NCBI GenBank assembly: GCA_031265105.1
Contig: JAISDC010000230.1
Location: forward strand, 1 to 40,567
Length of the DNA: 40,567 bases
Source of the DNA: Verrucomicrobiales bacterium
GTDB taxonomy: Bacteria > Verrucomicrobiota > Verrucomicrobiia > Methylacidiphilales > JAAUTS01
Direction: 5' to 3'
The first letter of the stretch is position 1, and each line of letters starts with the position of its first letter. Shown one piece after another: positions 16,588 to 40,387 of the stretch. The translations under genes and the position numbers were made by a program. The notes beneath the pieces are model-generated. The model ran no database searches, was not told the DNA's origin, and saw only the letters and a list, made by a program, of their open reading frames with translations.

Positions 16588-18049
16588 CTGAAGATTACCC
16601 AGAAGTGATCTGTACAATGAGAGGTGCTTGTGCAAAGTGTAGGGATGAGCAAAGGAAGTGATGAAGTTGGCGAGTGGGCGACCGGGGAATTGGCAGGATT
16701 GAGCAGCGTGGAGGATCCGCGACGGGTGGCCCGGTTGACGCGGTTGTTGGGAGCGTTAAGGCGGCAACCTGGGGCAAGCCTGCCTGAATGTTGTCGCAGT
16801 TGGGCGGAGATCAAGGCGGCTTATCGTTTGATTGAAAGTGAACGGATTGACGCGGCGGCGGTGTTGGACAGTCATGGGTTGGCAACGCTGGGTCGGATGA
16901 GCACGGCGGGGACGGTACTGGTGATTCAGGACACGACCAGCCTGGATTATTCGGGGCGCGCGGCCACCGAGGGGCTCGGGCCGATTGACCGCAAGGGTCA
17001 ATGGCGGCAAGGCTTGTGGTTACATAGCCAATTGTGCGTGGATGGAGCGCACGGCATGGTGTACGGGTTGCTGGATGCCAAACTTTGGGCGCGACCGACT
17101 GACCGCAAACGCCGAGTTTCGACCGAACGCAACCGGCTGTCGCTGGGCGCCAAGGAAAGTTGCCGTTGGTTGGATGGTTATGCGCAGTGCGTGGAGTTAC
17201 GGCGGCAGCTCAAGACGCAGGTGATCAGCGTGGCTGATCGTGAGGGGGACATTTACGAAGTATTCAGGCACTATCAACCGGGTTCGGCTGATCTGTTGGT
17301 GCGGGCGCAGCATGACCGTGAGTTGTTGGGGCAAAACGGACGGGTGCGCGCTTGGTTGTCGGCACAAGCGGTGAACGGGTATCGGTCGGTGACCTTGCCC
17401 GACCGGTCACGCAACGTCACCCTGGCCTTGCGCTGGCAACGGGTAACCATTGCTGCGCCGGTGGATCAACGCCGTTACCATGGAGTCACAGAGCCGGTGG
17501 AACTAACGGTATTGTGGGCACGGGAGGAACACCAACCGGCGGGACTGGACTGGATGTTGTGGAGCACCCTTGAGGTGAAGAACGCAGCGGAGGCCAACAC
17601 GTTATTGAGCTATTATGAACAACGCTGGCAGATTGAAGTGCTGCACCGCATCCTCAAAAGTTACTGCCGTGCCGAACAACGACAATTGCGTACGGCGAAG
17701 CGACTGGGCTTGCTGCTGGTACTCGACCTGTTGGTAGCCGTGTATGTGTTGGGGTTAACACATGCCGCCCGTATTACTCCGAACGCCCCGGCCGATGACT
17801 GGTTAACCCCGGGTGAACAACAAGCCCTCTGCGTGTGGCATACAGGGCCGCCGTTAACCAAGCCTCTCACCCTCTCCGTCGCCGTAGCCAAGCTCGGCCA
17901 ATTGGGCGGACACTTGGGGCGCAAGCACGACGGCCCGCCGGGACCAAAAGCCCTCTACCGCGGCCTCGCCAAACTCCTAACCATTTCAGATACCTGGCAT
18001 GCCGCTGCCGTTTACTTCGCCGCCAATAAAACTTCTGGGTAATCTTCAG
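16588..18049 (+). mobile_element. IS4-family element (IS50/Tn5-like), complete, 1462 bp
   Basis: Perfect 19-bp terminal IRs CTGAAGATTACCCAGAAGT (16588-16606, 18031-18049) and 8-bp target duplication GTGTAATT (16580-16587, 18050-18057). Confidence 0.95.
16645..18042 (+). CDS. IS4-family (Tn5-like) transposase; alternative start 16624
   Basis: KAAYRL, IQDTT, KESCRW, VADREGDIYE, YEQRWQIEVLHRILKS and LGGHLGRKHDGPPG. Confidence 0.94.
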   Translation: MSKGSDEVGEWATGELAGLSSVEDPRRVARLTRLLGALRRQPGASLPECCRSWAEIKAAYRLIESERIDAAAVLDSHGLATLGRMSTAGTVLVIQDTTSLDYSGRAATEGLGPIDRKGQWRQGLWLHSQLCVDGAHGMVYGLLDAKLWARPTDRKRRVSTERNRLSLGAKESCRWLDGYAQCVELRRQLKTQVISVADREGDIYEVFRHYQPGSADLLVRAQHDRELLGQNGRVRAWLSAQAVNGYRSVTLPDRSRNVTLALRWQRVTIAAPVDQRRYHGVTEPVELTVLWAREEHQPAGLDWMLWSTLEVKNAAEANTLLSYYEQRWQIEVLHRILKSYCRAEQRQLRTAKRLGLLLVLDLLVAVYVLGLTHAARITPNAPADDWLTPGEQQALCVWHTGPPLTKPLTLSVAVAKLGQLGGHLGRKHDGPPGPKALYRGLAKLLTISDTWHAAAVYFAANKTSG

Positions 18050-23912: not shown

Positions 23913-24896
23913 CTATTTTCCTTGACTCGCTGGCGCTGACAAGGTCGCGTCACCGTCAGCGGTGGATTTTGCCGGAAAATATTTTTTAATCCATAACAGG
24001 TAGCCGAGCCACAGCACGCTTGAGCCAATGGTGAACCACAAGATTTGATTGCCGCCGAAATGTTGCAGCCCTTGTTCCAGTTGCGCTAATTGCTGTCCGG
24101 TATAACCGGCGGCGCGGTTAAATTCCATCGTGTCGTGACAGATGAACGTCAGCGTGCCGGACACGCCAAAGAATAACACACAGGCGAATGACAGCCACCA
24201 GCCACTGACGGTCAGTCGGTACATTTTCCACGCCGAATAGAGCCAGAGCACGCTCAGTGCGAGAAACAGAACGGTTGCCGAAATGCCGATTAGGATTTGC
24301 CCAAAGAACGGAAACGCCGGGCGAACAAACGCGACTGGCACCAAAGTCATGACACCCAAAATTATGAACAAACAACTGGCGAGCACCGGCAGCGGGCAAG
24401 CGTCTGTCCAACTTGGCGCTGGGTTGCGTGCTTCGCAGGTAGCTTTGACATGCCGGTCGCCGTAGAACCAAACGCCAATGGCGGGAATTATAAAAAAAAT
24501 GGTTGCTTGAATGGCGATAATAATTCCGCCCACAGGTCCCAGTTTAAGCGGGCTTTGCAATAGCATCCAAAGCAGTGAGCCAACAGTCAAAATTCCCATG
24601 ATTAACACGCACCACGCCAGTATCAGCAACAACGCCCGTGCCCAGCGCTGTGCCTTAATAGAACCGATACCCAGCCAGACGAGTGTCACAGTTAAACCGC
24701 TGTATATTGCCAATGTTACGATTAGCATGTTCGAGTTAATTGGCATGCCGCTTTTTTGCGCGTTAAATAATAAACCGCAAATTATTAACATCATGAATAA
24801 CGCGTTCAACACACCCGCCAGAATTTCCAAAATGCCGAACACTATCAGCCAAGCCGAGCGGTCTTTAAACGGAGCTGTCGAGTTTGTCATCAGCAA
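23913..24896 (-). CDS. Multi-pass membrane hypothetical protein
   Basis: About 8 hydrophobic segments in a 327-aa ORF; no family recognised. Confidence 0.7.
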   Translation of the reverse strand: MLMTNSTAPFKDRSAWLIVFGILEILAGVLNALFMMLIICGLLFNAQKSGMPINSNMLIVTLAIYSGLTVTLVWLGIGSIKAQRWARALLLILAWCVLIMGILTVGSLLWMLLQSPLKLGPVGGIIIAIQATIFFIIPAIGVWFYGDRHVKATCEARNPAPSWTDACPLPVLASCLFIILGVMTLVPVAFVRPAFPFFGQILIGISATVLFLALSVLWLYSAWKMYRLTVSGWWLSFACVLFFGVSGTLTFICHDTMEFNRAAGYTGQQLAQLEQGLQHFGGNQILWFTIGSSVLWLGYLLWIKKYFPAKSTADGDATLSAPASQGK

Positions 24897-24960
24897 TAAA
24901 TAGTCGCTGATGGTGAAATGTCTAGCAATAAATTCGCTGTTAGAGGTAATGGTGCTTCAC

Positions 24961-24992
24961 AAAAAAAGCGCCCCCTTGCGGAGGCGCTTTTT
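24961..24992 (-). terminator. Rho-independent terminator of the dnaK-groESL operon (potentially bidirectional)
   Basis: AAAAAAAGCGCC-loop-GGCGCTTTTT, 33 nt downstream of the groEL stop. Confidence 0.85.
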
Positions 24993-25025
24993 GAATGCAG
25001 CTTGCGCTGACGGTGATGGATTCGC

Positions 25026-26663
25026 TTAGTAATCCATCCCGCCCATGCCGCCGCCGCCCGGAGGCATTGCCGGAGCTTTTTCCTTTTCAGGGGCGTCCGT
25101 GACAATGGCTTCCGTTGTCAACAACAGGCCGCTGATGCTGGCCGCGTTTTGCAGGGCGGTCCGCGTCACTTTCGTCGGGTCCACGACGCCGGCTTTTACG
25201 AGGTCTTCGTATTGCTCGGTGGCCACGTTGTAGCCTTCGGCGCTCTTGCGCTTTTTCACTTCTTGCACGACGATGCTGCCGTCCACGCCCGCATTGTCAG
25301 CGAGGGTGCGGAGCGGTTGCTCAATCGCGCGGTTGACGATTTGCGCGCCGATGAGCTGGTCTTCGTCGGTCAGCTTCAGCGCTTCAATCGCTTTTTGCGC
25401 GCGGATGAGCGCGGTGCCGCCACCGGGGACGATGCCTTCCTCGACCGCCGCGCGGGTGGCGTGCAGGGCGTCTTCGACGCGGGCTTTCTTTTCCTTCATC
25501 TCGGTCTCGGTCGCGGCGCCGACGTTGATGACGGCCACGCCACCGGCGAGTTTCGCCAGGCGTTCTTGCAATTTCTCGCGGTCGTAGTCGCTGGTGGTCT
25601 CTTCAATCTGGCGGCGGATTTGACCCACGCGCCCTTGAATGTCAGCGTTCTTGCCGCCGCCTTCGATGATGGTGGTGTTTTCCTTGTCAATGACGATGCG
25701 CTTGGCTTTGCCGAGGTCGTCGATGCCGGTGTTCTCCAGCTTGATGCCGAGGTCTTCGCTCAGCAGCTTGCCGCCGGTCAGCACGGCGATGTCTTCGAGA
25801 ATCGCCTTGCGCCGGTCGCCGAAGCCGGGGGCTTTGACGGCGGCCACTTGCAGCGTGCCGCGCAGTTTGTTCACCACCAGCGTCGCGAGCGCCTCGCCCT
25901 CGACTTCTTCCGCGATGATGAGCAGCGGTTTGCCGCTCTTGGCGACTTTCTCGAGCACGGGGAGCAAGTCCTTCATGCTGGAGATTTTTTTCTCGTTGAT
26001 GAGGATGTAGGCGTTCTCCAACACGGCTTCCTGCGCCTCGGCGTCGGTAACGAAGTAGGGCGAGAGGTAACCTTTGTCGAACTGCATGCCCTCGACCACT
26101 TCCAGCGAGGTCTCGATGGATTTGGCTTCCTCGACCGTGACGGTGCCGTCTTTGCCGACCTTGTCCAGCGCGTCGGCGATGATTTCACCGACGGTGTGGT
26201 CCCAGTTGGCGCTGACGGTGGCGACTTGCTTGATTTCCTCTTTATCCTTGACTTTCTTGGAAATCTTCGCGAGTTCCGTGACGACGACTTCGACGGCTTT
26301 GTCAATGCCGCGCTTGAGGTCGGTCGGGTTGGCGCCGGCGGTGACGTGTTTCAAGCCGGACTTGTAGATGGCTTCTGCCAACACGGTCGCGGTCGTGGTG
26401 CCGTCACCGGCGATGTCGCTGGTTTTGCTGGCGACTTCGCGGACGAGTTGGGCGCCGATATTTTCATAACGGTCTTCCAACTCGATTTCCTTCGCCACGG
26501 TCACGCCGTCCTTGGTGATGGTCGGTGAGCCGAATTTTTTGTCGAGGACGACGTTGCGTCCGCCGGGACCCATCGTGGCTTTCACCGCGCGGGCGAGTTT
26601 TTCCACGCCGCGCAGGAGACCCTGGCGGGCGGCTTCTTCGAATAATAACTGTTTTGCTGCCAT
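25026..26663 (-). CDS. groL: Chaperonin GroEL
   Basis: [46 protein letters not shown] and GGM tail. Confidence 0.99.
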
Positions 26664-26687
26664 AGTGTGTGTTTTCCTTTCTTGAAT

Positions 26688-26984
26688 TTATGCGATTACG
26701 CCGAGGATATCGTCCTCGCGCAAGATGAGATACTTGTCGCCGTCGAGAGTGACCTCGGTGCCGCCGTATTTGCTATACAACACGCGGTCGCCTTTGCTCA
26801 CCTCGAACGGAATGACTTTGCCACTCTCGTCTTTTTTACCAGTACCGAGGGCGACGATGGTGCCTTCCTGCGGTTTTTCCTTCGCGGTATCGGGGATGAT
26901 GATACCGCCCTTCTTCACTTCCTGCTCCTCGATGGGTTCGACCAACACGCGGTCGCCAACGGGTTTGAACTTAATGTTTGCCAT
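26688..26984 (-). CDS. groS: Co-chaperonin GroES
   Basis: [25 protein letters not shown] and YSKYGGTE. Confidence 0.98.
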
Positions 26985-27027
26985 AAGTTACTTTTTTCTT
27001 TCTTGTTATCGTTAGTTTTTGTTTTAG

Positions 27028-27068
27028 TCAACACCAGCGGCAGCGGAGCCGCTGATGGTCACGAAATT
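27028..27068. repeat. 41-bp hairpin direct repeat, copy R1
   Basis: TCAACACCAGCGGCAGCGGAGCCGCTGATGGTCACGAAATT; 38/41 identical to R2; contains the KilA-N gene stop. Confidence 0.92.
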
Positions 27069-27919
27069 ATTTGTGGTTTCTCCTTCAATAGTTTCATTCC
27101 TTGGTTTCCCATGAGCGATTTCATTTGTGTAATCGCCACGTTGTTTAATTGTACCAGTCGCTCGCCTTGCGGTAAACTGTGGCGAACGAGCAGGGCGTTG
27201 ACGCTTTCCATGTTTGAGAGCACCACGAGTTGTTCCAACGCGGCGAAGTCGCGGATGTTGCCTTTTTCGCCGGGGTTGTCATCGCGCCATTGCTTCGCTG
27301 TTTTGCCGAACAGAGCCACGTTCAGCAAGTCGGCTTCATTGGCATAGACAGTGCTGATTTGTTTTTTGGTGACGAGTTGCGGGATGATGCATTCCTTGAT
27401 GGCGTCAGTGTGGATGCGGTAATTGATTTTGGAAAGTGTGCGTTGCAAATTCCATTCGAGCGAAAGCCGTTGGTTTTCTTCTCGTTTAAGACGCTTAAAT
27501 TCAGTGACGAGGAAAAGTTCAAATTCCGCCGAAATCCATGCGGCGAATTTAAAGGCAATATCGGAATGGGCAAATGTACCTCCACCATAGCGACCTGACT
27601 TTGAAATCAAGCCAATGGCATTGGTTTCGCTAATCCATTTTTGCGGTGACATCCAAAAATGTGGTTTGGCGGACTCATTTTTAAACCCCTCATAAATGTG
27701 GGGTTTAAAATTTGGGTTGTTTAGCTTTTCCCACAACCCGATATACTCAATCGTGCTGTAGGTGCGAAGCCAAAGGCTGATAACCTGCGACGGACTTTCG
27801 TCGTTGCGGTATCTTGCCATGTCGGTGAGCGAAATATAATCTTCCTTCTCTTTTGAGAACAAGACTATTTTCGTCCCCTGCACAGTTATGGTTTCCTTCT
27901 TCGCCACATTATTCTCCAT
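27059..27919 (-). CDS. KilA-N domain protein
   Basis: EDYISLTDMARY, WLRTYSTIEYIGLWEKLNNPNFK, SPQKWI, SKSGRYGGGTFAHSDIAFKFAAWIS and LSKINYRIHTDAIK. Confidence 0.92.
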   Translation of the reverse strand: MENNVAKKETITVQGTKIVLFSKEKEDYISLTDMARYRNDESPSQVISLWLRTYSTIEYIGLWEKLNNPNFKPHIYEGFKNESAKPHFWMSPQKWISETNAIGLISKSGRYGGGTFAHSDIAFKFAAWISAEFELFLVTEFKRLKREENQRLSLEWNLQRTLSKINYRIHTDAIKECIIPQLVTKKQISTVYANEADLLNVALFGKTAKQWRDDNPGEKGNIRDFAALEQLVVLSNMESVNALLVRHSLPQGERLVQLNNVAITQMKSLMGNQGMKLLKEKPQIIS

Positions 27920-27927
27920 TGCCAACT

Positions 27928-27955
27928 TTAAAGTGGTCAAATTCGACCACTTTAA
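27928..27955. promoter_or_regulatory. 28-bp near-perfect palindrome upstream of the KilA-N gene
   Basis: TTAAAGTGGTC-AAATTC-GACCACTTTAA, lying 8 nt upstream of the ATG at 27919. Confidence 0.7.
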
Positions 27956-27967
27956 TTTTTCTTCTTA

Positions 27968-28008
27968 TCACCATCAGCGGCAACGGAGCCGCTGATGGTC
28001 ACGAAATT
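27968..28008. repeat. 41-bp hairpin direct repeat, copy R2
   Basis: TCACCATCAGCGGCAACGGAGCCGCTGATGGTCACGAAATT; perfect 12-bp stem with a 6-nt loop. Confidence 0.92.
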
Positions 28009-28027
28009 TGTTTTTATTTTTACAAAA

Positions 28028-29074
28028 TTATTTTTCCTTGTTGCTCAGTTTAGTGGTTTGCTCCGCCAGTTCAATCGCCTGCTGTAATTTTTGCTCCAGT
28101 AATTTTTTTTCCGGCAACTGCGTCATGTATTCCGCCACTTTGATTTGTCCGGGATGGTCGAGCAGCAAATAGTTGATTTGCTCAGGCGATTTTTCGCTGC
28201 ACAAAATCAACCCCACGGGCGGGTTCTCGCCCTCCCTCAAATCGTTGCGTTCGAGCCAGCGCAAGTACAATTCCATTTGCCCCTTGTAATCGGCTTTGAA
28301 TTTTCCGAGCTTCAAATCAATCGCCACCAAACACCGCAAGCCGCGATGATAAAACAGCAAATCCAGGTAATAATCTTCATTGTCAATGACAAGTCGTTTT
28401 TGGCGGCCGACAAAGGTGAAATCCGCGCCCATTTCCACGATGAAATTTTGCAGGTTCCGCAAAATAGACGACTCCAAATCTTTCTCGCTGAAGGTGTCTT
28501 TTAAGCCTAGAAAATCGAGGAAATAGGGGTCGCGGAAAACCAAATCAGGCGTGAGTTTTTTCTCATTTTTCAGCGCAGCCAAATCATTGGTGATGGTCAG
28601 CGCCGGTTTTTTGCTAATCGCCGTCCGCTCGTAAAGCATACTGTCCACGCGCTCTTGCAACGTGCGAACACTCCAATGTTCGTGAATGCACATTTGCGTG
28701 TAAAAGTCACGTTTTAGGCTGTCTTCGATGTAAATGAGGTTGCGGATGTGTGTCCAGGTCAATTGTGCACTCAGTGAGTGCACAATTGGCTCTTCTAGAA
28801 CTAACTCATTGAACCTAATGAAGTTATGTAAATTTCTTTTTGAAAAACCCTGGCCGTAACGACGGGTTAGTTCCGCGCTCAACTCTTTGATAACGGTCTT
28901 GCCATAATCAGCTTTTTCGTGCTTCAAAACGCGGTCATTTATCTGCTTACCGATATGCCAATACAAAACCGTCAATTCACTGTTGACCGTAACGGCAACT
29001 TTGCGCCGCGCGCTGTCAATCAGCGAAACGATGGACTGAAGCAATTCGCTTCCGGTTGTTTGTATCTGGCTCAT
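28028..29074 (-). CDS. YhcG / DUF1016 family PD-(D/E)xK nuclease-domain protein
   Basis: VNSELTVLYWHIG, YGQGFSKRNL, LTWTH, WSVRTL, RDPYFLDFL, DLLFYHRGLRCLVAIDLK, GQMELYL and ENPPVGLILC. Confidence 0.94.
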   Translation of the reverse strand: MSQIQTTGSELLQSIVSLIDSARRKVAVTVNSELTVLYWHIGKQINDRVLKHEKADYGKTVIKELSAELTRRYGQGFSKRNLHNFIRFNELVLEEPIVHSLSAQLTWTHIRNLIYIEDSLKRDFYTQMCIHEHWSVRTLQERVDSMLYERTAISKKPALTITNDLAALKNEKKLTPDLVFRDPYFLDFLGLKDTFSEKDLESSILRNLQNFIVEMGADFTFVGRQKRLVIDNEDYYLDLLFYHRGLRCLVAIDLKLGKFKADYKGQMELYLRWLERNDLREGENPPVGLILCSEKSPEQINYLLLDHPGQIKVAEYMTQLPEKKLLEQKLQQAIELAEQTTKLSNKEK

Positions 29075-29095
29075 TTTTTAATCAATTTTTTCTTG

Positions 29096-29136
29096 TCATC
29101 GTCAGCGGCAGTGGAGTCGCTGAGGGTCACGAAATT
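29096..29136. repeat. 41-bp hairpin direct repeat, copy R3
   Basis: TCATCGTCAGCGGCAGTGGAGTCGCTGAGGGTCACGAAATT; 35/41 identical to R2. Confidence 0.9.
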
Positions 29137-29377
29137 ATTTTTTGTTTTTGTCACGTAAATATCCTTCAAATATCTCGGTTATGTTCCTGCCAATAAGCAC
29201 CGCCGACGCCAAAATGCTTATGCTAACCATTATTCCGACACAGGCTAACAGTGGATTACTTCGCCATGCCGTAACCCATGCAAACATAAAACTTCCTCCC
29301 ATGGCAAAAGCTCCAGATATTACCAGCCATTTCATAAACTTTGAGTTTTGAATGTTCATTTTTTGTCCGCTAATCAT
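29135..29377 (-). CDS. Small two-TM hypothetical membrane protein
   Basis: AT-rich 80-aa ORF filling the space between dnaK and R3, co-oriented with the operon, with two hydrophobic segments. Confidence 0.6.
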   Translation of the reverse strand: MISGQKMNIQNSKFMKWLVISGAFAMGGSFMFAWVTAWRSNPLLACVGIMVSISILASAVLIGRNITEIFEGYLRDKNKK

Positions 29378-29416
29378 GCTACTAGCTTTTGATTTGCGTG
29401 ATTAGCGGACTCTTGG

Positions 29417-31360
29417 TTATTTCTTCTTATCATCATCCACAATCTCCGCGTCAATCACATCATCGTCAGCGGACTTCGCCGACTGCGGCTCACCGTCAGC
29501 GGGCGCGGCACCGGCAGCGGCACCGCCATGTTGCGCGTTCACATTCGCGGACGCTTGCTTGTACAACTCCGTCGAAACCTCCTGAATCTTCACCGTCAGC
29601 GCCTCGGTCGCCGACTTGATAGCGTCGCTGTCCTCACCCTTGAGAGTCTCGCGCAACTTGCCGACCAAATCCTCAACAGCCTTCTTGCCGTCCTCGCCAA
29701 TCTTGTCACCATTATCCTTCACCAACTTCTCCGCCTGGAACGCCAAGTTGTCGCCCTGATTGCGAATCTCCACCTTCTCCTTCGCCTTCTTGTCATCCTC
29801 AGCGTGCGCCTCGGCCTCCTTCACCATCCGCTCAATCTCGCTCTTGTCCAACCCGCTGCTGCCGGTGATGGAAATCTTCTGCTCCTTGTTCGTCCCCAAA
29901 TCCTTGGCGCTGACGTTGAGGATGCCGTTGGCGTCAATGTCAAACGTCACCTCGATTTGCGGCACCCCGCGCGGCGCCGGCGGAATGCCATCCAGATGAA
30001 ACTTGCCCAGCGACTTGTTATCGCGCGACAACGGCCGCTCGCCCTGCAAAATGTGAATTTCCACGCCCGGCTGACTGTCCGACGCCGTGCTGAACACATT
30101 GTTCTTCTTGGTCGGAATCGTCGTATTGCGCGGAATCATCGGCGTCGACTGGCCGCCTAACGTCTCAATACTCAGCGTCAGCGGCGTCACATCCAGCAAC
30201 AACACATCATCCACCTCGCCGCGCAACACACCGCCCTGCACCGCCGCGCCAATCGCGACCACCTCGTCCGGGTTCACGCCCTTGTGCGGCTCCTTGCCCA
30301 CGATGCGCCGCGCGATTTCCAAAATCTTCGGCATCCGCGTCATGCCGCCGACCAGCACCAATTCATTGATGCCACTGGCAGCGAGCTTCGCGTCGCGCAA
30401 ACACGCCTCGACCGGCTTGATGGTTCGCTCCGCCAGCGCCTCGGTCAGTTGCTCCAACTTCGCGCGCGTCAGCTTCAGTTGAATATGCTTCGGCCCGGTC
30501 TGGTCCGCCGTGATGAACGGCAAATTAATCTCGAACTCCTGCGACGACGACAGCGCGATTTTCGCCTTCTCCGCCTCCTCCTTGATGCGCTGCATGGCGT
30601 CCGACTGACTGTGCAAATCAATGCCGCTGTCCTTCTTGAACTCGCTGACGATGTGGTCAATCAGCGCGTTGTCCCAGTCATCGCCGCCGAGATGCGTGTC
30701 ACCGTTAGTGGCCAGCACCTCGAACACCCCGTCAGCGATGGACAACGCCGAAATATCGAACGTCCCGCCGCCGAGGTCATACACCGCGATTTTCTCATCC
30801 TTGGTCTTTTCGAGACCATAAGCCAACGACGCCGCCGTCGGCTCATTAATAATCCGCAACACCTCAAGCCCGGCAATCTTCCCCGCATCCTTCGTCGCGT
30901 GCCGCTGACTATCATTAAAATAAGCGGGCACCGTAATCACCGCCTGCGTAATCTTCTCGCCCAATTTCGCCTCAGCATCAGCCTTCAACTTGGACAAAAT
31001 AAAAGAAGAAATTTCCTCCGGCGTATAAACCTTCGCCTCCCCGCTGACCGTGACCTCCACCGCCGCCGCCCCATTCTTCCCCTCGACGACCTTATACGGC
31101 AACCGTTTAATCTCCTCCCCAATCTCCGAAAACTTCCGTCCAATCAACCGCTTCACCGAAAAAACCGTATTTTTTGAATTCGTCACCGCCTGACGTTTCG
31201 CCGCCTGTCCGACGAGTCGTTCCCCATTCTTAGTGAACGCCACCACCGACGGCGTAGTCCGCGCCCCCTCGGCATTCTCAAGAACGACCGCCTTCCCACC
31301 CTCCATAACCGCCATGCACGAATTAGTCGTGCCCAAATCAATACCCAAAACTTTACTCAT
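29417..31360 (-). CDS. dnaK: Molecular chaperone DnaK
   Basis: [45 protein letters not shown] and [15 protein letters not shown]. Confidence 0.99.
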
Positions 31361-31410
31361 AAAATAAACTCCTATAGCCGTAAGAAACGGCTGTTGTTGC
31401 CTACTATATC

Positions 31411-31426
31411 GCAAATGGCGTGCCAA
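31411..31426 (-). promoter_or_regulatory. Sigma-54 (-24/-12) promoter of dnaK-groESL
   Basis: Minus strand reads TTGGCACGCCATTTGC, matching TGGCAC-N5-TTGC, 50 nt upstream of the dnaK ATG. Confidence 0.8.
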
Positions 31427-31452
31427 GGTTGGTTTGAGAAAATAACGCTGAT

Positions 31453-31465
31453 AATCAACATGTTA
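31453..31465. promoter_or_regulatory. IHF-like binding site
   Basis: AATCAACATGTTA matches WATCAANNNNTTR and lies just upstream of the sigma-54 promoter. Confidence 0.55.
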
Positions 31466-31744
31466 TGAAATTCATGGCAAAATCCAAGTGCGACAATAAT
31501 AACGCACAAGAGACATAATGACCCTTTTAATAAGAGATGTACCTAACTCACGCACCCATTAAAGGGTGCGACCATAAATAAGACAATTTCCTTACTTAAA
31601 CCATTGTTTCAACTCACACATCCACGAAGGATATGACTTGACCACTTTAGCAGTTTTTTTTCAAAGGCAAGCGCCGAAATCTTATTGATAAATCGTCTGA
31701 TTTTTGTTTAATGGATTAAGGAAGGATAAGTAAATGGAAGCTAA

Positions 31745-32589
31745 AAATCTGTATATAATTTTAAGTATGTGTAACGTAAGTCGGATGAGGAAAGGTCGAC
31801 AGTACCCCAGTGATATCAGCCGAACGCAATTTGCGGAGATCAAACCACTATTGGAAAGCGCACGGAAAAAGACCCGCCCACGCGAGGTGGATTTATACGA
31901 AGTGTTCTGTGCGGTGCTGTATGTGCTGCGCAGTGGGTGCCAGTGGCGGATGCTTCCCGATGGGTTCCCCAAGTGGCGCACGGTTTATTCCTACTGGCAA
32001 ATCTGGAATGCCGTTAACGATACTGAGAGCCTGTTACCACAGGCCCTTAAAAAAATCGGTTGGCGCGGCCCGCGTTCGCCTTGGGCGCAACGCCCAGCCC
32101 AGCCTACTAATCATTGACGCCCAGCGCGTGCAGAACACCGACAGCGCCAGACACAAGGGGTATGACGCTGGCAAAAAGGTTGCCGGTAGCAAACGCCATC
32201 TGGCGGTGAATACGCAAGGTTTGCCACATGGCCTCATTGTCACCACCGCCAATGTCACCGACCGCCACGGTGCCACCAAACTGCTGTGCCAGCAACGCAC
32301 CGAGTTACAGTCCATCCACACCAGCCTGACCGATAGCGGCTACAGTGGCACCACTTTCGCCCAGGCGGTCAACCAATGGCTACCACACGCCAAGGTGCAA
32401 ATCGTCAAGCGTTTGGAGCAAGCTACTTTCGTGGTGTTGCCCAAACGCTGGATTGTCGAGCGCACCTTTGCCTGGCAGGATAAACATCGCCGCCGCTGGA
32501 AAAACTGCGAATGCCTCCTCAACTCTTCACTCCAATTCGCCATCCTCGTCCTGTTCGCTTTGCTCCTCAATAGATTATGAACAGGCTCT
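31745..32589 (+). mobile_element. IS5-family insertion sequence with degenerate terminal IRs
   Basis: Left TAAAAATCTGTATATAATT versus right (reverse complement) TAAGAGCCTGTTCATAATC, 13/19 match. TAA on both flanks. Confidence 0.8.
31785..32580 (+). CDS. IS5-family transposase in two frames (probable -1 frameshift)
   Basis: YPSDIS, VLYVLRSGCQWRMLP, A7 tract at 32049-32055 (LKK/SVG), IIDAQ, GYDAGKKVAGSKRH, DSGY and KRWIVERTFAW. Confidence 0.88.
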
Positions 32590-37148: not shown

Positions 37149-40100
37149 TTAGAACTGATGCCGGTAGCCGAGGTTCAGGTTCCACGGCACGGTGGTGTGG
37201 TCGCCGAAGATGGCGTCGTATTCCAGGCGCAACTGGTCGAAGGTGGTGATTTGCCACTGGACGCCGGCGCCGCCGAGGAAATACAGGCCGTCGGTATGCA
37301 CGCGCCACACATCGTCAGCGTCGCCGCCGATGTGGACTTTGTTGCCCGCGCTGATTTGCTCCAGCGCGCCGCCGCGCAGATACGGTTGCAAGGTCTGTCC
37401 CTGGTCGCCGAGCTTGAAAGTCCAGCCGCCGCGCACGTTCGCGGCCAACTGGCCAATGTCAGCGGCGTTGACGCGCACGGTCGCCACGTCGCTGGAGTAA
37501 TTGCCGTTGAACAGCCGCAGATACGCGGCCTGCACCGACGGCTCGACAAACGCGCCGCCCGCAAAATCAAAGCGCTTGCCCGCTGACAGTGCCGCGCCGC
37601 CCGCCCAGTTTTTGAAGTCCGCGCGGTCACGGAAATTCACGTCATTGGCGGCGCGCGCGTCGAACGAGTTCTCGGCGTACTGTCCCTTCAGCACCAGGTC
37701 GGCGAACCAGCCCGCCTGATTCAGCCAGGTGCCGTAAAAGCCGCCGTAAAAACTGTTCGTGTCGCCGTCGCCGTTGTTCTTGAAATCATGCCGCGCGCCG
37801 CCGTAGCCGACGAAATAACCGAAGGTCAGCGAGTTGGCGGCGTCGAGCCGCCAGGTCATGTCCGCGCCGAGGTCGATGCCGTAAATCATGTCGGTGAATT
37901 TCTCGACGCCGCTGATGTTGAGCTTCGTGTCGGCCTGGCGCCCGTAGGAACGCGCCCAGAAATCCACGCCGTGATCGCCCTCCTGCCGCCCGTAGGCGAT
38001 GTAGTCCTCGATGCTCTGTTCCGCGCGGAAGCGCGTTTCCGCCAGCCGCCCGCGCAGGCTGTCGAGTTGCGCGAACCATGCCAGCGGCGCCGACGCCGCG
38101 ATGTTCAAAATCGCGTTCGCCGCGCTCATGGTTTTCACGCCGCTGAGCGTCCAGTTTTGCCCGTCGGTCGCCAAGTCATATTTGTACATGCCGGAGTACA
38201 ACGAGCCGCCGTTAAGCGTGAAAGTCGCGCCACTGACACCGCTGATGGTGATAATATCGGTGGCCGCCAGCGCGCCGCCGCTCTTGCCGCTCTTGTCGAT
38301 GAACAGCGTGGTGGCGCCGGAGCTGTCACCGTTGATGAACACGCGGTCAACAATCGGCGCGCCGCCGTCCATGCGCGCGGTCATGTGCAGGGACGAACCG
38401 TCGCCGCCGAGGTAGTCGCCGTACACCGTCAGCGTGCTTTGCGTGTTGCCGTTGCCGAACCGAATCGCACCGAGGTTGGTCACGCCCGCCGAACCGGCGC
38501 GGCCGAATTGCGCGTTCGTGTCGCTGAGGGTGACTTGCGCGCGGAAGGCAATGGTCGTGCTGCCGACGTAGTCGTTGCTCCCGCTGATAACGGTATTGCC
38601 GTTGAAGGTGACGTTCAATTCCTTGGTGCTCGCCAGCGCGCCGAGCCGGACATCGCCGTTCAATTGCAAATCGGGATAATCACCGTCACCGAACGCGAGC
38701 GTGCCGCCGACGTTGAGCCGCGCGCGCCCGTCGTCCACCAGGTTAAGCACCCCGGACGAACCGGCGTTCTGCGCGACGTTCAGGTTGCCGCTGACGGTGA
38801 GTTCGCTGTTATCGATGCGCAACGAGCCGCTACCGACCGGCGCGAAATTCAAGTCACCGTTCACCACCAGCCGGGCGTCCCGTTCGAGAATCACCGTCAC
38901 GTCCGAACCGACACCCTCAGCGACGGTCATGTTATTCACCGTCAGCGTCGAGTTGCGCGAGACGACCGTGGTACCGCTCGCCGCCACGCCACCAGCCAGG
39001 GCAAAGTTACCGACCCTGACCGTGGAGTAACGATCAACACCCAACCACCCCGTCGCGTCCGCGCCTGAGGCCAGCGTCAGATTGCCCGCGGTCAGCGTGG
39101 AATAATCCAACACGTCAAGCGACGCCCACGCATTAGTCCCGGACGCGCCGACGATGTCGCCGGCGAAAATCAGCGTCGAGTGATTGGCCGCGCCCAGCCA
39201 AGCATGGGAGTTTTCGCCGGTTGCCAGATGGTTGGTACCGGTGCCGAGAAATCTTGCGCTGCCGATGTGCAGGCCGAATTGCGTGTAGGAATTTGATCCC
39301 TCGGAAGCATACAGCAAGCCGCTGTTGATGAAGCGCGCACTGACAAAATCCGTGCTCGGCGATTCAATATACACACCACCGCCGCTGTTGTCCAAATGGC
39401 CGATGCTCAAATCACCGTTGTTCGTCCATGATGACGAGTCTTCAACATACACAGCGTAGTACCCGCCGCCGTCATAGCTGATGGTGGCGCTGTTGGTGAC
39501 CAGCGTGCTGTTGTCATACAAATAAATGTGGCCATCCGCGAAGGAACTCCACGTGGAACCATCATCGCCGGACATGTCCAGCGCGCCGCCGACCGTGACC
39601 CGTCCGCTGCCGCTGACGAAGACATAACTGCCCGTGCGAAGGCGTAAGTCGCCATCATTGCGCATGGTCGCCGTGTCGGCGACTTGCAGGATACCGTACG
39701 TATTAATGTAGTTATAAGTGTTGGTTCCGCCGGTGCGAAGACTTTTGCCGGACAACTCCAGCGCGCCGAGATTATGCCACTCGCCGTTGCCGCTAACGGT
39801 GACGTATGCGTCGCCACCGTAGGCCTCCCAAGTGTTGTTGTTAATGAGGGAGCTGTGATCGGTGCCATAAATCCTCGACAGCGCGCCTTCGGTGGTGAAG
39901 GAGCCGTCGCGGATAACAAATTCCGTGCCGGTACCGGAATTGGCGGTGAGCTGGTAGCTGCCGCCGTCCACGAACAAATTGGAAATGAGCACCGGCACGG
40001 TGCTGCTGACGGTGGGATATACCCAACTGTTGGAAATATAGGCGTTATCGTGGTAGCGATTACCTTCATCGCCGGGGATGCCGCTGCGATAATATGAAAT

Positions 40101-40265
40101 GCCATTGTAATTATACCACATGCCTTCGGTGTCCTCCCAGTTCACCCTGTCGCCGATATAAAATGTGCCGGTTGGCCACCATTCATAATCATCCGCTCGC
40201 GCTGACAGTGACAGGGCGCTGACGGCAGCCAGCACCGCGATTTTTCCAAACCAATATTTACTCAT
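37149..40265 (-). CDS. Autotransporter (type Va) outer-membrane protein with Gly/Asn/Ser-rich beta-helical passenger
   Basis: Signal peptide, repetitive passenger, GDYLGGDGS..DRVFINGDSSG autochaperone-like region, and beta-barrel (FWARSYG, VEPSVQ, LQPYLRG) ending LNLGYRHQF. Confidence 0.93.
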   Translation of the reverse strand: MSKYWFGKIAVLAAVSALSLSARADDYEWWPTGTFYIGDRVNWEDTEGMWYNYNGISYYRSGIPGDEGNRYHDNAYISNSWVYPTVSSTVPVLISNLFVDGGSYQLTANSGTGTEFVIRDGSFTTEGALSRIYGTDHSSLINNNTWEAYGGDAYVTVSGNGEWHNLGALELSGKSLRTGGTNTYNYINTYGILQVADTATMRNDGDLRLRTGSYVFVSGSGRVTVGGALDMSGDDGSTWSSFADGHIYLYDNSTLVTNSATISYDGGGYYAVYVEDSSSWTNNGDLSIGHLDNSGGGVYIESPSTDFVSARFINSGLLYASEGSNSYTQFGLHIGSARFLGTGTNHLATGENSHAWLGAANHSTLIFAGDIVGASGTNAWASLDVLDYSTLTAGNLTLASGADATGWLGVDRYSTVRVGNFALAGGVAASGTTVVSRNSTLTVNNMTVAEGVGSDVTVILERDARLVVNGDLNFAPVGSGSLRIDNSELTVSGNLNVAQNAGSSGVLNLVDDGRARLNVGGTLAFGDGDYPDLQLNGDVRLGALASTKELNVTFNGNTVISGSNDYVGSTTIAFRAQVTLSDTNAQFGRAGSAGVTNLGAIRFGNGNTQSTLTVYGDYLGGDGSSLHMTARMDGGAPIVDRVFINGDSSGATTLFIDKSGKSGGALAATDIITISGVSGATFTLNGGSLYSGMYKYDLATDGQNWTLSGVKTMSAANAILNIAASAPLAWFAQLDSLRGRLAETRFRAEQSIEDYIAYGRQEGDHGVDFWARSYGRQADTKLNISGVEKFTDMIYGIDLGADMTWRLDAANSLTFGYFVGYGGARHDFKNNGDGDTNSFYGGFYGTWLNQAGWFADLVLKGQYAENSFDARAANDVNFRDRADFKNWAGGAALSAGKRFDFAGGAFVEPSVQAAYLRLFNGNYSSDVATVRVNAADIGQLAANVRGGWTFKLGDQGQTLQPYLRGGALEQISAGNKVHIGGDADDVWRVHTDGLYFLGGAGVQWQITTFDQLRLEYDAIFGDHTTVPWNLNLGYRHQF

Positions 40266-40387
40266 AACCAAGGGTTCCGTTGTTTTATATTCGTGGCGTC
40301 ACAGACGCGACAATGCCGAAGATAGCAAAGTCATCCAAGCTGACAACATTTTATTTGGCGTCTCGTCATATTTTACCGAGTGTTTTT

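Follow-up and report, generated by a model that had tools for sequence, protein, structure and literature searches.

Introduction

Integron attC sites are cassette-specific, travel with their cassettes, and have bulged stems and conserved boxes, while the pdif sites of Acinetobacter plasmids are conserved XerC/XerD sites that occur in alternating orientation. Displacement at rearrangement hotspot (Rhs) and contact-dependent inhibition (CDI) loci relies on long coding copies that are used for homologous exchange of toxin tips. A further mode of gene gain, insertion with long target duplication, was reportedly described for restriction-modification units by Nobusato et al. in 2000. Here, we report on a 40,567-nucleotide (nt) stretch of DNA from a Verrucomicrobiales bacterium (assembly GCA_031265105.1, contig JAISDC010000230.1, positions 1 to 40,567; hereafter "the window"), in which three AT-richer genes, each followed by a hairpin-forming repeat, lie between the chaperone genes dnaK and groES. 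While a first-pass annotation of this DNA had read the interval as an integrase-less cassette array, we propose that it arose through serial insertion with long target duplication at the dnaK-groES spacer and not through an integron-like system, an interpretation to which we assign a probability of about 0.72.

In the passages that define this class of insertion, Furuta, Abe and Kobayashi (2010; PMC2853133) describe repeats of more than 30 bp that are found nowhere else in the genome and extend across a stop or start codon, as well as inserts that deviate in G+C content and lack an integrase; the cases given there include mcrA, a solitary nuclease gene. With regard to the genes found in the interval, the relevant sections of Milman et al. 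(2023; PMC9881135) list DUF1016, RhuM, and others as passenger genes in type I restriction-modification and other defence operons, and report DUF1016 as strongly enriched next to such systems (odds ratio 17.4), restriction-modification and bacteriophage exclusion (BREX) genes among them, and as able to lie between type I core genes.

Results

In this genome (3.0 Mb in 289 contigs, 92% complete), the spacer within the conserved dnaK-groES-groEL arrangement measures 2.4 kb, and the contents of the inserted stretch are three open reading frames (ORFs) only, as judged from ORF listing and Pfam. The features of the locus, with repeats and palindromes listed without strand, are:

29417..31360, reverse strand: dnaK (HSP70; Pfam HSP70 E 9e-260), with its ATG at 31360
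29365..29410, reverse strand: post-dnaK stem-loop, an inverted repeat with 15-nt arms and a 16-nt loop
29135..29359 (29135-29359/77), reverse strand: small hydrophobic ORF (insert 1), 74 amino acids (aa) from the second ATG, 39.6% G+C
29080..29162, core 29096-29136: repeat R3, read as a copy of the native post-dnaK spacer
28028..29074, reverse strand: YhcG/DUF1016 PD-(D/E)XK nuclease gene (insert 2), Pfam YhcG_C 1e-52 and DUF1016_N 3e-46, PADLOC PDC-S02
28760..28788: YhcG intragenic palindrome, perfect, 29 nt, position-conserved and covarying across the family
27952..28034, core 27968-28008: repeat R2, read as a spacer copy
27928..27955: palindrome "hairpin B", 28 nt, between R2 and the KilA-N start, of the KilA-N-palindrome type
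27059..27919 (27059-27919/40), reverse strand: KilA-N gene (insert 3), 286 aa, Pfam KilA-N 4e-18, PADLOC PDC-S22
27679..27710: KilA-N intragenic palindrome, 32 nt, position-conserved and covarying across the family
27012..27094, core 27028-27068: repeat R1, read as the copy in native position, upstream of groES
26688-26984, reverse strand: groES (Pfam Cpn10 2.5e-35)
25026-26663, reverse strand: groEL (Pfam Cpn60_TCP1 6e-79)

The first-pass annotation had described three AT-richer, co-oriented genes, each followed by a 41-bp repeat, and both its coordinates and its identities were confirmed. G+C content is 45.0% for the inserted stretch and 46.1% for the YhcG gene, as compared to 60.9% for the genome, 57.7% for dnaK, and 60.9% for groEL. 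Identity over the 41-nt core is 38/41 for R1 and R2 and 35/41 for both R2/R3 and R1/R3, and similarity extends to a family of 83 nt (63/83, 58/83, and 56/83); a search with the 41-mer allowing at most 3 mismatches returned 2 matches vs 0 in 100 shuffles. Each copy is, as had been described, an inverted pair, with 12-nt arms, a 6-nt loop, and perfect or nearly perfect stems without bulges, and the three copies are in direct orientation, judged by their flanks. When folded as sense RNA, R1, R2, and R3 gave -21.5, -27.1, and -10.8 kcal/mol (z scores of -4.4, -7.1, and -3.4), respectively. The stem-loop at 29365-29410 (-21.8 kcal/mol and z -7.45 as sense RNA), which directly follows the dnaK stop and overlaps the first ATG of the small ORF, is unrelated to the repeats.

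The repeats are confined to this locus. Exactly three copies were found in the genome, all of them in this array (degenerate 34-nt pattern, at most 3 mismatches; reversed control 0), and among 104 genomes of the order only two contained the repeat, i.e., this genome and the congener G004, the latter with one copy within the mismatch limit; the possibility that the 41-mer is a common dispersed repeat, raised at first, is thereby removed. Four further matches from a metagenome scan were rejected as chance, being located in GC-rich, coding-like DNA with flanks that showed no similarity.

An alignment of R1 to R3 with the G004 copies of R1 and R2 and with the single dnaK-groES spacer of a second congener, G001, showed shared dnaK terminal codons plus TAA, AATTTCGT[G/A]AC, the position of the hairpin, and an A-rich tail of ~25 nt. 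In G001, the stem sequence differs from that of the repeats and the loop, at the same position, is ~17 nt, so that its match rests on the flanks and the hairpin position. Because R1 to R3 align with the single native spacer of G001/G004, including the dnaK end codons and stop, we conclude from this alignment that they are the duplicated target, i.e., copies of this lineage's native dnaK-groES spacer and not cassette-borne recombination sites. In the alignment, the 5' part of the repeats corresponds to the 3' end of dnaK. The duplicated target consists of the last dnaK codons and stop, AATTTCGTGAC, a stem-loop that resembles a terminator, and the A-rich tail, with ~41 nt well conserved and up to ~83 nt recognisable. 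Identification of the repeats as spacer copies also explains why stop codons are found inside them. The TAA of the small ORF aligns with the copied dnaK stop in R3, and the KilA-N frame overruns its homology with other KilA-N genes into R1 and ends at a TGA there. The two cassette stop codons that had been placed in or at the repeats were indeed located in this way, with the KilA-N stop (27059-27061) inside R1 and the small-ORF stop (29135-29137) overlapping the end of R3; the YhcG stop is 19 nt away from R2. A separate observation is that 17/18 positions agree between the 18 nt after the R2 hairpin (27958-27975) and the 18 nt of dnaK that precede its stop (29420-29437), with a weaker match for the stretch after R3 (29086-29103); this likeness may be a coincidence of purine-rich spacer DNA or a trace of how the duplications arose.

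Comparison of the dnaK-groES interval across relatives, which had been suggested as a check, showed that it is variable and not invariant. In eight relatives (G001 from the same genus; G005, G006, and G008 from the family; G009, G020, G022, and G030 from the order), dnaK and groES are 53-141 nt apart and separated by a single spacer each, as compared to 1.5 kb in the congener G004; a duplicated spacer was found in 0/8 of these empty-site relatives. The locus was not found in the congeners G002 and G003, the genomes of which are 77-78% complete. Since 7/8 empty spacers contain a GC-rich hairpin that begins 5-15 nt past the dnaK stop and differs in sequence in each (followed, in G030, by a T run), comparison across these genomes identifies the post-dnaK hairpin as an element that is native to the 3' end of dnaK and conserved in structure, and as a candidate terminator, attenuator, or stabiliser. 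The G004 interval contains a copy of hairpin B, a 56-aa homologue of the small ORF, a non-coding remnant, a degenerate R2, the KilA-N gene, and R1. Within the remnant of ~300 nt, a short segment is similar to the start of R3, and 36 nt of the YhcG gene, those around the palindrome, survive (86% identical); a tblastn search for further YhcG remnants in G004 gave no significant match. G004 carries a partly decayed version of the array. The same non-coding remnant also holds three tandem 15-nt units of the TTTGACAGGCAGATT type (L005 1333-1379). The serial accretion at a hotspot that had been proposed for this interval is therefore upheld by the empty spacers in eight relatives, the decayed array in G004, and the confinement of the repeats to the locus.

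The YhcG and KilA-N proteins matched the PADLOC models PDC-S02 (1.3e-130, residues 5-342) and PDC-S22 (2.7e-127, residues 6-281), respectively, over their full length, and NCBIfam had no model for either. YhcG_C is treated as a PD-(D/E)XK nuclease domain in the relevant part of PMC4316617. Both genes are candidate single-gene phage-defence systems, and both travel widely; the cargo includes no methyltransferase. Of 401 genomes drawn from the phylum, 131 had a YhcG homologue. Full-length copies of the KilA-N protein in other phyla share 77-81% identity with it, and one partial copy shares 86%; the corresponding records are labelled Desulfuromonadales, Odoribacteraceae and Lentimicrobiaceae (both Bacteroidota), Planctomycetaceae, and Methanobrevibacter curvatus (archaea), and several near relatives appear to be termite-gut metagenome-assembled genomes (MAGs), judged from isolate labels. 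This identity across phyla, together with the difference in G+C content between insert and genome, indicates that the inserts are foreign. Past the ORF, identity to the closest relatives from other phyla drops to 12-43%, without any likeness to the repeats, while identity to G004 stays at 69-82%. A structural model of the KilA-N protein (mean predicted local distance difference test score 89.5) combines a KilA-N/APSES-like head with a long helix and a helical tail. The best Foldseek match, to DdrC, a protein that binds DNA ends, was weak (E 1e-3, template modelling score 0.29-0.36), and APSES DNA-binding domains were also matched. The idea that this protein might be its own recombinase or nuclease was dropped, as no such fold was among the Foldseek matches. 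For the small ORF, no family was found in Pfam, PADLOC, NCBIfam, or PHROGs. A weak homologue is present at the same place in G004 (13/28 identical, E 0.001 in a single comparison), and the 104 genomes of the order yielded no credible match, with two hits (E 0.0025 and 0.009) located inside long unrelated frames.

Direct repeats also flank members of both gene families at other sites. For KilA-N, we used one genome per species and the best 80 of 201 relatives, of which 72 loci had complete flanks, and scored a direct repeat where a score of at least 20 was obtained between the 280 nt around the gene start and the 280 nt around the gene end. Flanking direct repeats were present in 15/72 loci from many phyla, ranged from 21 to 243 nt, and had a different sequence at each; controls gave 0/216 for permuted flanks and 4/119 for same-size mock units beside the gene (Fisher p 2e-4). 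In seven KilA-N loci the ORF ends were overshot, and repeat offsets are unreliable there. The KilA-N homologue of the congener G002 (60% identical) is located at an unrelated site between 39-nt direct repeats that are 92% identical and 951 nt apart, as compared to 940 nt here and 959 nt in G004; these repeats contain the last seven codons and stop of the upstream gene, and the G002 KilA-N protein therefore also ends in borrowed residues. The homologue in G003 follows a nusB-like gene and has no clear repeat. Hairpins were also considered as a general insertion target and rejected, as only 2/15 KilA-N flanking repeats fold clearly better than shuffles (z below -1.9).

The flank survey for YhcG covered the 29 best loci, 27 with complete flanks; repeats of 56, 56, 48, and 28 nt (control maximum 13) were found at 4/27, two of which represent one insertion in sister species. 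At one of these loci, L105, the YhcG unit measures 1,111 bp and is bordered on both sides by the opening 56 nt of the next gene, in perfect 56-bp copies; the downstream copy shares its first bases with the YhcG stop. The duplicated gene start occurs once in the empty-site sequence fetched for G501, and by search coordinates the L105 flanks are 4-21 nt apart in G501, G514, G301, G402, and G508, all of the same genus. The site of the YhcG unit in G191 was observed to be variable within its genus (L144-L151; query L105:600-3400, positions 115-1918); depending on the genome, between 4 nt and 1.8 kb separate a conserved piece of 114-128 nt from the next gene, and ARAGORN did not identify this piece as a tRNA. 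Repeat enrichment around both families suggests that the duplication is tied to insertion.

The KilA-N gene is a mosaic, as revealed by sliding identities (comparison with L005 and L024-L028). This genome and G004 share the 3' half of the gene, an otherwise unique C-terminal end, and the flanks at 82-88% DNA identity; the 5'-middle part is 40-57% identical to G004 and 70-90% identical to copies from other phyla at the DNA level, and a quick tree placed the two KilA-N genes in different major clades. From these patterns, we read this as one ancestral KilA-N insertion before the split from G004, after which recombination with a foreign allele replaced part of the gene; we likewise read G004 as having subsequently lost most of the YhcG unit.

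Both the KilA-N and the YhcG genes contain a conserved internal palindrome. In the KilA-N (PDC-S22) family the palindrome is 30-36 nt and encodes roughly F-K-P-x-E-F-x-G-F-K. Covariation was assessed in 69 genes (66/72 flanked loci that translated cleanly plus three congeners; region chosen by homology). Over a 15-pair stem, 86.2% of cells were paired vs 57-60% with the partner slid one column; 10/15 pairs were changed on both sides, and doubly changed cells numbered 92 vs 21.6 in shuffles and 12-25 when slid. In YhcG/DUF1016 genes the palindrome is 25-33 nt, of the type ATTGT-N6-C-N6'-ACAAT, at ~nt 287-315 of the gene (homologues L105-L132). Here the set comprised 20/30 genes, the ten most distant having been excluded for gaps in the region (mostly they, too, have a palindrome near the same position), and 81.2% of cells in a 13-pair stem were paired vs 28-42% when slid, with 47 doubly changed cells vs 8-18. 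Some YhcG members were seen to have a second palindrome near nt 180. Third codon positions are almost fixed within both palindromes and free beside them, and paired amino acids vary as complementary codons do (Leu/Glu, Val/Asp, Asn/Val); the constraint is therefore on the nucleic acid. Sense-strand G·U pairs exceed A·C by ~2x (42 vs 18 cells, which are not independent), and this excess leans towards an mRNA stem-loop.

Such palindromes also occur outside genes. The YhcG palindrome is kept, with a compensatory change, in the gene-less G004 remnant. Palindromes of the KilA-N type include hairpin B, those after dnaK and in the remnant of G004 (L005 921-944, 1191-1248, 1439-1462), and one upstream of the G003 gene (L006 2301-2386); others lie upstream of the gene in L062, L073, L076, and L095, Bacteroidota records among them, where they are sometimes two in tandem and sometimes within an apparent fragment of a KilA-N-like frame. 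In L076 (a Paludibacter MAG), a stretch of 29 nt located upstream of the KilA-N gene is identical to hairpin B. These non-genic palindromes may be what is left of decayed genes, or may constitute small elements in themselves. Neither hairpin B nor the YhcG palindrome has a second copy in this genome, and a proliferating family of GAATTC-centred palindromes was dismissed for this genome, given that just 2/487 GAATTC sites conformed. A literature search, judged by title and abstract, found no related account of KilA-N palindromes in defence.

Elsewhere in the window, two transposase ORFs were identified, neither of which is linked to the array by any evidence:

31810-32580, forward strand: DDE transposase ORF (DDE_Tnp_1), ~450 nt upstream of the dnaK start and outside the insert
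16624-18042, forward strand: Tn5-like transposase ORF

The earlier claim that no recombinase is nearby therefore holds for tyrosine recombinases, which were absent from the contig in a PF00589 profile search, but not for transposases, given the DDE transposase ORF upstream of dnaK. This ORF adjoins a stretch of 35-38% G+C (31350-31800). Rfam at permissive thresholds gave one sub-threshold match across 24800-32200, outside the array; no CIRCE operator (controlling inverted repeat of chaperone expression) was found in the window or the genome; and a scan for promoter and terminator consensus sequences returned counts equal to the shuffled expectation. A 1040-aa ORF (37149-40271, reverse strand) has autotransporter beta, autochaperone, and pertactin-like domains. 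DNA of the window was matched in a termite-gut metagenome run.

Discussion

Taken together, the array represents a well-preserved example of a mode of gene gain that is known but lacks an explanation, and not a new recombination system. At least two, and probably three, separate insertions of foreign, AT-richer, ORF-sized units took place at one spot. The site is empty in eight relatives; the repeats align with one copy of the target, are longer than 30 bp, are not dispersed, and span a stop codon; and the insert deviates in G+C content and contains neither an integrase nor a transposase. The sole departure from the class as first described is the cargo, which is not a restriction-modification system.

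Under serial insertion with long target duplication, the target spot would be the short spacer from the dnaK stop onward, which holds the terminator-like stem-loop, and each insert would end up flanked on either side by a copy of the target. The duplication may have been made at insertion, through fill-in of a widely staggered break that enclosed captured DNA; alternatively, replication might have switched template at the stalling stem-loop and re-entered upstream. Either a template switch or a staggered break at the stem-loop would explain repeated hits at one hairpin, and two or three events in the same ~140-nt target would yield an array that resembles an integron. Homologous exchange among relatives through the repeats probably came later. 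The inserts may be co-transcribed with the chaperone genes, in which case each copied stem-loop would supply the preceding cistron with the former 3' end of dnaK.

A number of points weigh against this interpretation. An empty site with the same hairpin is not available, G001 being another species, and exact junctions are hence unreadable; in addition, the repeats have diverged (35-38/41 and 56-63/83), which makes the original extent of the duplication uncertain. There is no repeat copy between dnaK and the small ORF, where just ~18 nt of the A-rich dnaK end resemble the end of the small ORF, and the third event is therefore weakly supported. Beyond this locus, 0/80 KilA-N loci are beside dnaK, groES, or groEL; a YhcG homologue adjoins the KilA-N gene in 4/80. 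Flanking repeats are found at just 21% of KilA-N and 15% of YhcG loci, and loci without them may have lost them or gained the gene otherwise; outside the dnaK-groES spacer, moreover, the flanking repeats are mostly not hairpins. The choice of one spot for three events is unexplained, as is the mechanism of insertion, for which Furuta et al. (PMC2853133), in the sections concerned, suggest only that double-strand breakage is involved.

Displacement by DNA from a relative is an alternative that we consider unlikely. In this scenario, incoming DNA with a dnaK end and spacer beside a new gene would have joined by homology at one end and illegitimately at the other, and the resident spacer would have been pushed downstream in the manner of "orphan" modules behind Rhs/CDI genes, placing the newest gene next to dnaK. 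The repeats do include terminal codons of dnaK; R3 shares GAGGGTCAC with the R1 of G004, where R1 and R2 of this genome have GATGGTCAC; and the mosaic KilA-N gene indicates that recombination with foreign alleles has occurred here. Displacement could, however, account for spread among relatives that share the target but cannot create the first junction between gene and target. The donor is not known, the repeats at other loci differ from site to site, and those of L105 are identical, as expected from duplication on the spot.

A joint reading of both gene families, quite unlikely in our view, is that YhcG/DUF1016 and KilA-N genes form an unrecognised class of ORF-sized mobile units with a conserved, covarying intragenic stem-loop, which would insert with long, variable target duplications and in which structured DNA in unit and target (at this locus, the post-dnaK stem-loop) would take part in the movement. 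Such units might act via template switching during replication, or the encoded nuclease or DNA-binding protein might have an activity specific to hairpins. If this were true, residence within a stress operon would link a defence gene to the response to heat shock.

Site-specific recombination, in which the repeat would be an att-like core (12-6-12; an analogue of Xer/dif, pdif, or attC) served by a tyrosine recombinase encoded elsewhere and the array a series of integrase-less elements accreted in tandem, appears very improbable. The arm-spacer geometry is like that of recombinase core sites, direct repeats occur one after each co-oriented gene, and four tyrosine recombinase genes above the family cut-off, plus one weaker match, are present on other contigs of the genome. 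The site is nevertheless not conserved, with another stem and a loop of ~17 nt in G001 and other hairpins in six further relatives; the likeness spans ~83 nt of ordinary spacer, well beyond the palindrome; the repeat is beside no other gene in this genome, the 104 genomes of the order, or the metagenome scan; this contig lacks a tyrosine recombinase; and the stems lack attC bulges (attC boxes were judged by eye). As the repeats are host spacer copies, the cargo genes lie between other, unrelated repeats elsewhere, and the closest KilA-N relatives in other phyla have nothing like the repeat after the ORF, the first-pass reading of a cassette array with recombination hairpins was not supported.

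Least probable of all is a prior tandem duplication of the spacer as regulatory or terminator copies between which genes later landed by chance, since the spacer is single in 8/8 empty-site relatives and long repeats are enriched around both gene families at many unrelated sites, even though the stem-loop is a native, functional-looking element and insertion by chance between repeats is a class that appears in the pages of Furuta et al. dealing with such events (PMC2853133).

The locus offers a compact natural record of what are probably three events in one 140-nt target inside an essential operon, the site being still empty in one congener and the array decayed in another. It would extend long target duplication from restriction-modification to two single-gene "passengers" that rank among the commonest in defence islands, and would provide a simple account of how such genes enter operons without a recombinase of their own. 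It also serves as a warning that repeat-bounded gene arrays are not integron-like by shape alone. The covarying intragenic palindromes, if confirmed, would give a handle on how both genes are controlled or moved.

Compared to described systems, the locus shares with long target duplication, as set out in the defining passages of Furuta et al. (PMC2853133), an insert that is absent in relatives, unique repeats of more than 30 bp that align with one target, and a spanned stop codon; it differs in that the cargo consists of two PADLOC candidates and a small membrane ORF instead of a restriction-modification system, in that probably three events are stacked as an array, and in that the target is the stem-loop spacer of a chaperone operon. 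The operon-invading habit of single genes is shared with the defence-operon passengers covered in the relevant sections of Milman et al. (PMC9881135); here, by contrast, a housekeeping chaperone operon was invaded, and the target-duplication scars appear to be still readable.

Integrons and clusters of attC sites lacking integron-integrases (CALIN) resemble the array in their co-oriented, tight single-gene units, in the hairpin repeat after each gene, which can overlap the stop, and in the absence of a recombinase from the array itself. The repeats described here are, however, near-identical, derive in our reading from the host spacer, and occur at this locus only, while the cargo has other repeats elsewhere; the contig gave no PF00589 match, and the array is headed by dnaK and not by IntI/attI. 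Like pdif modules, the units have no recombinase of their own and short arm-spacer-arm borders, yet the sites described here are chromosomal, are repeated in direct orientation, and lack conservation even among members of the genus. Finally, modules are likewise stacked in Rhs/CDI displacement arrays, where a copy of the main gene's end stands before every module; at the dnaK-groES locus, only ~18 nt of dnaK are repeated along with non-coding spacer, and the dnaK gene has not been altered.

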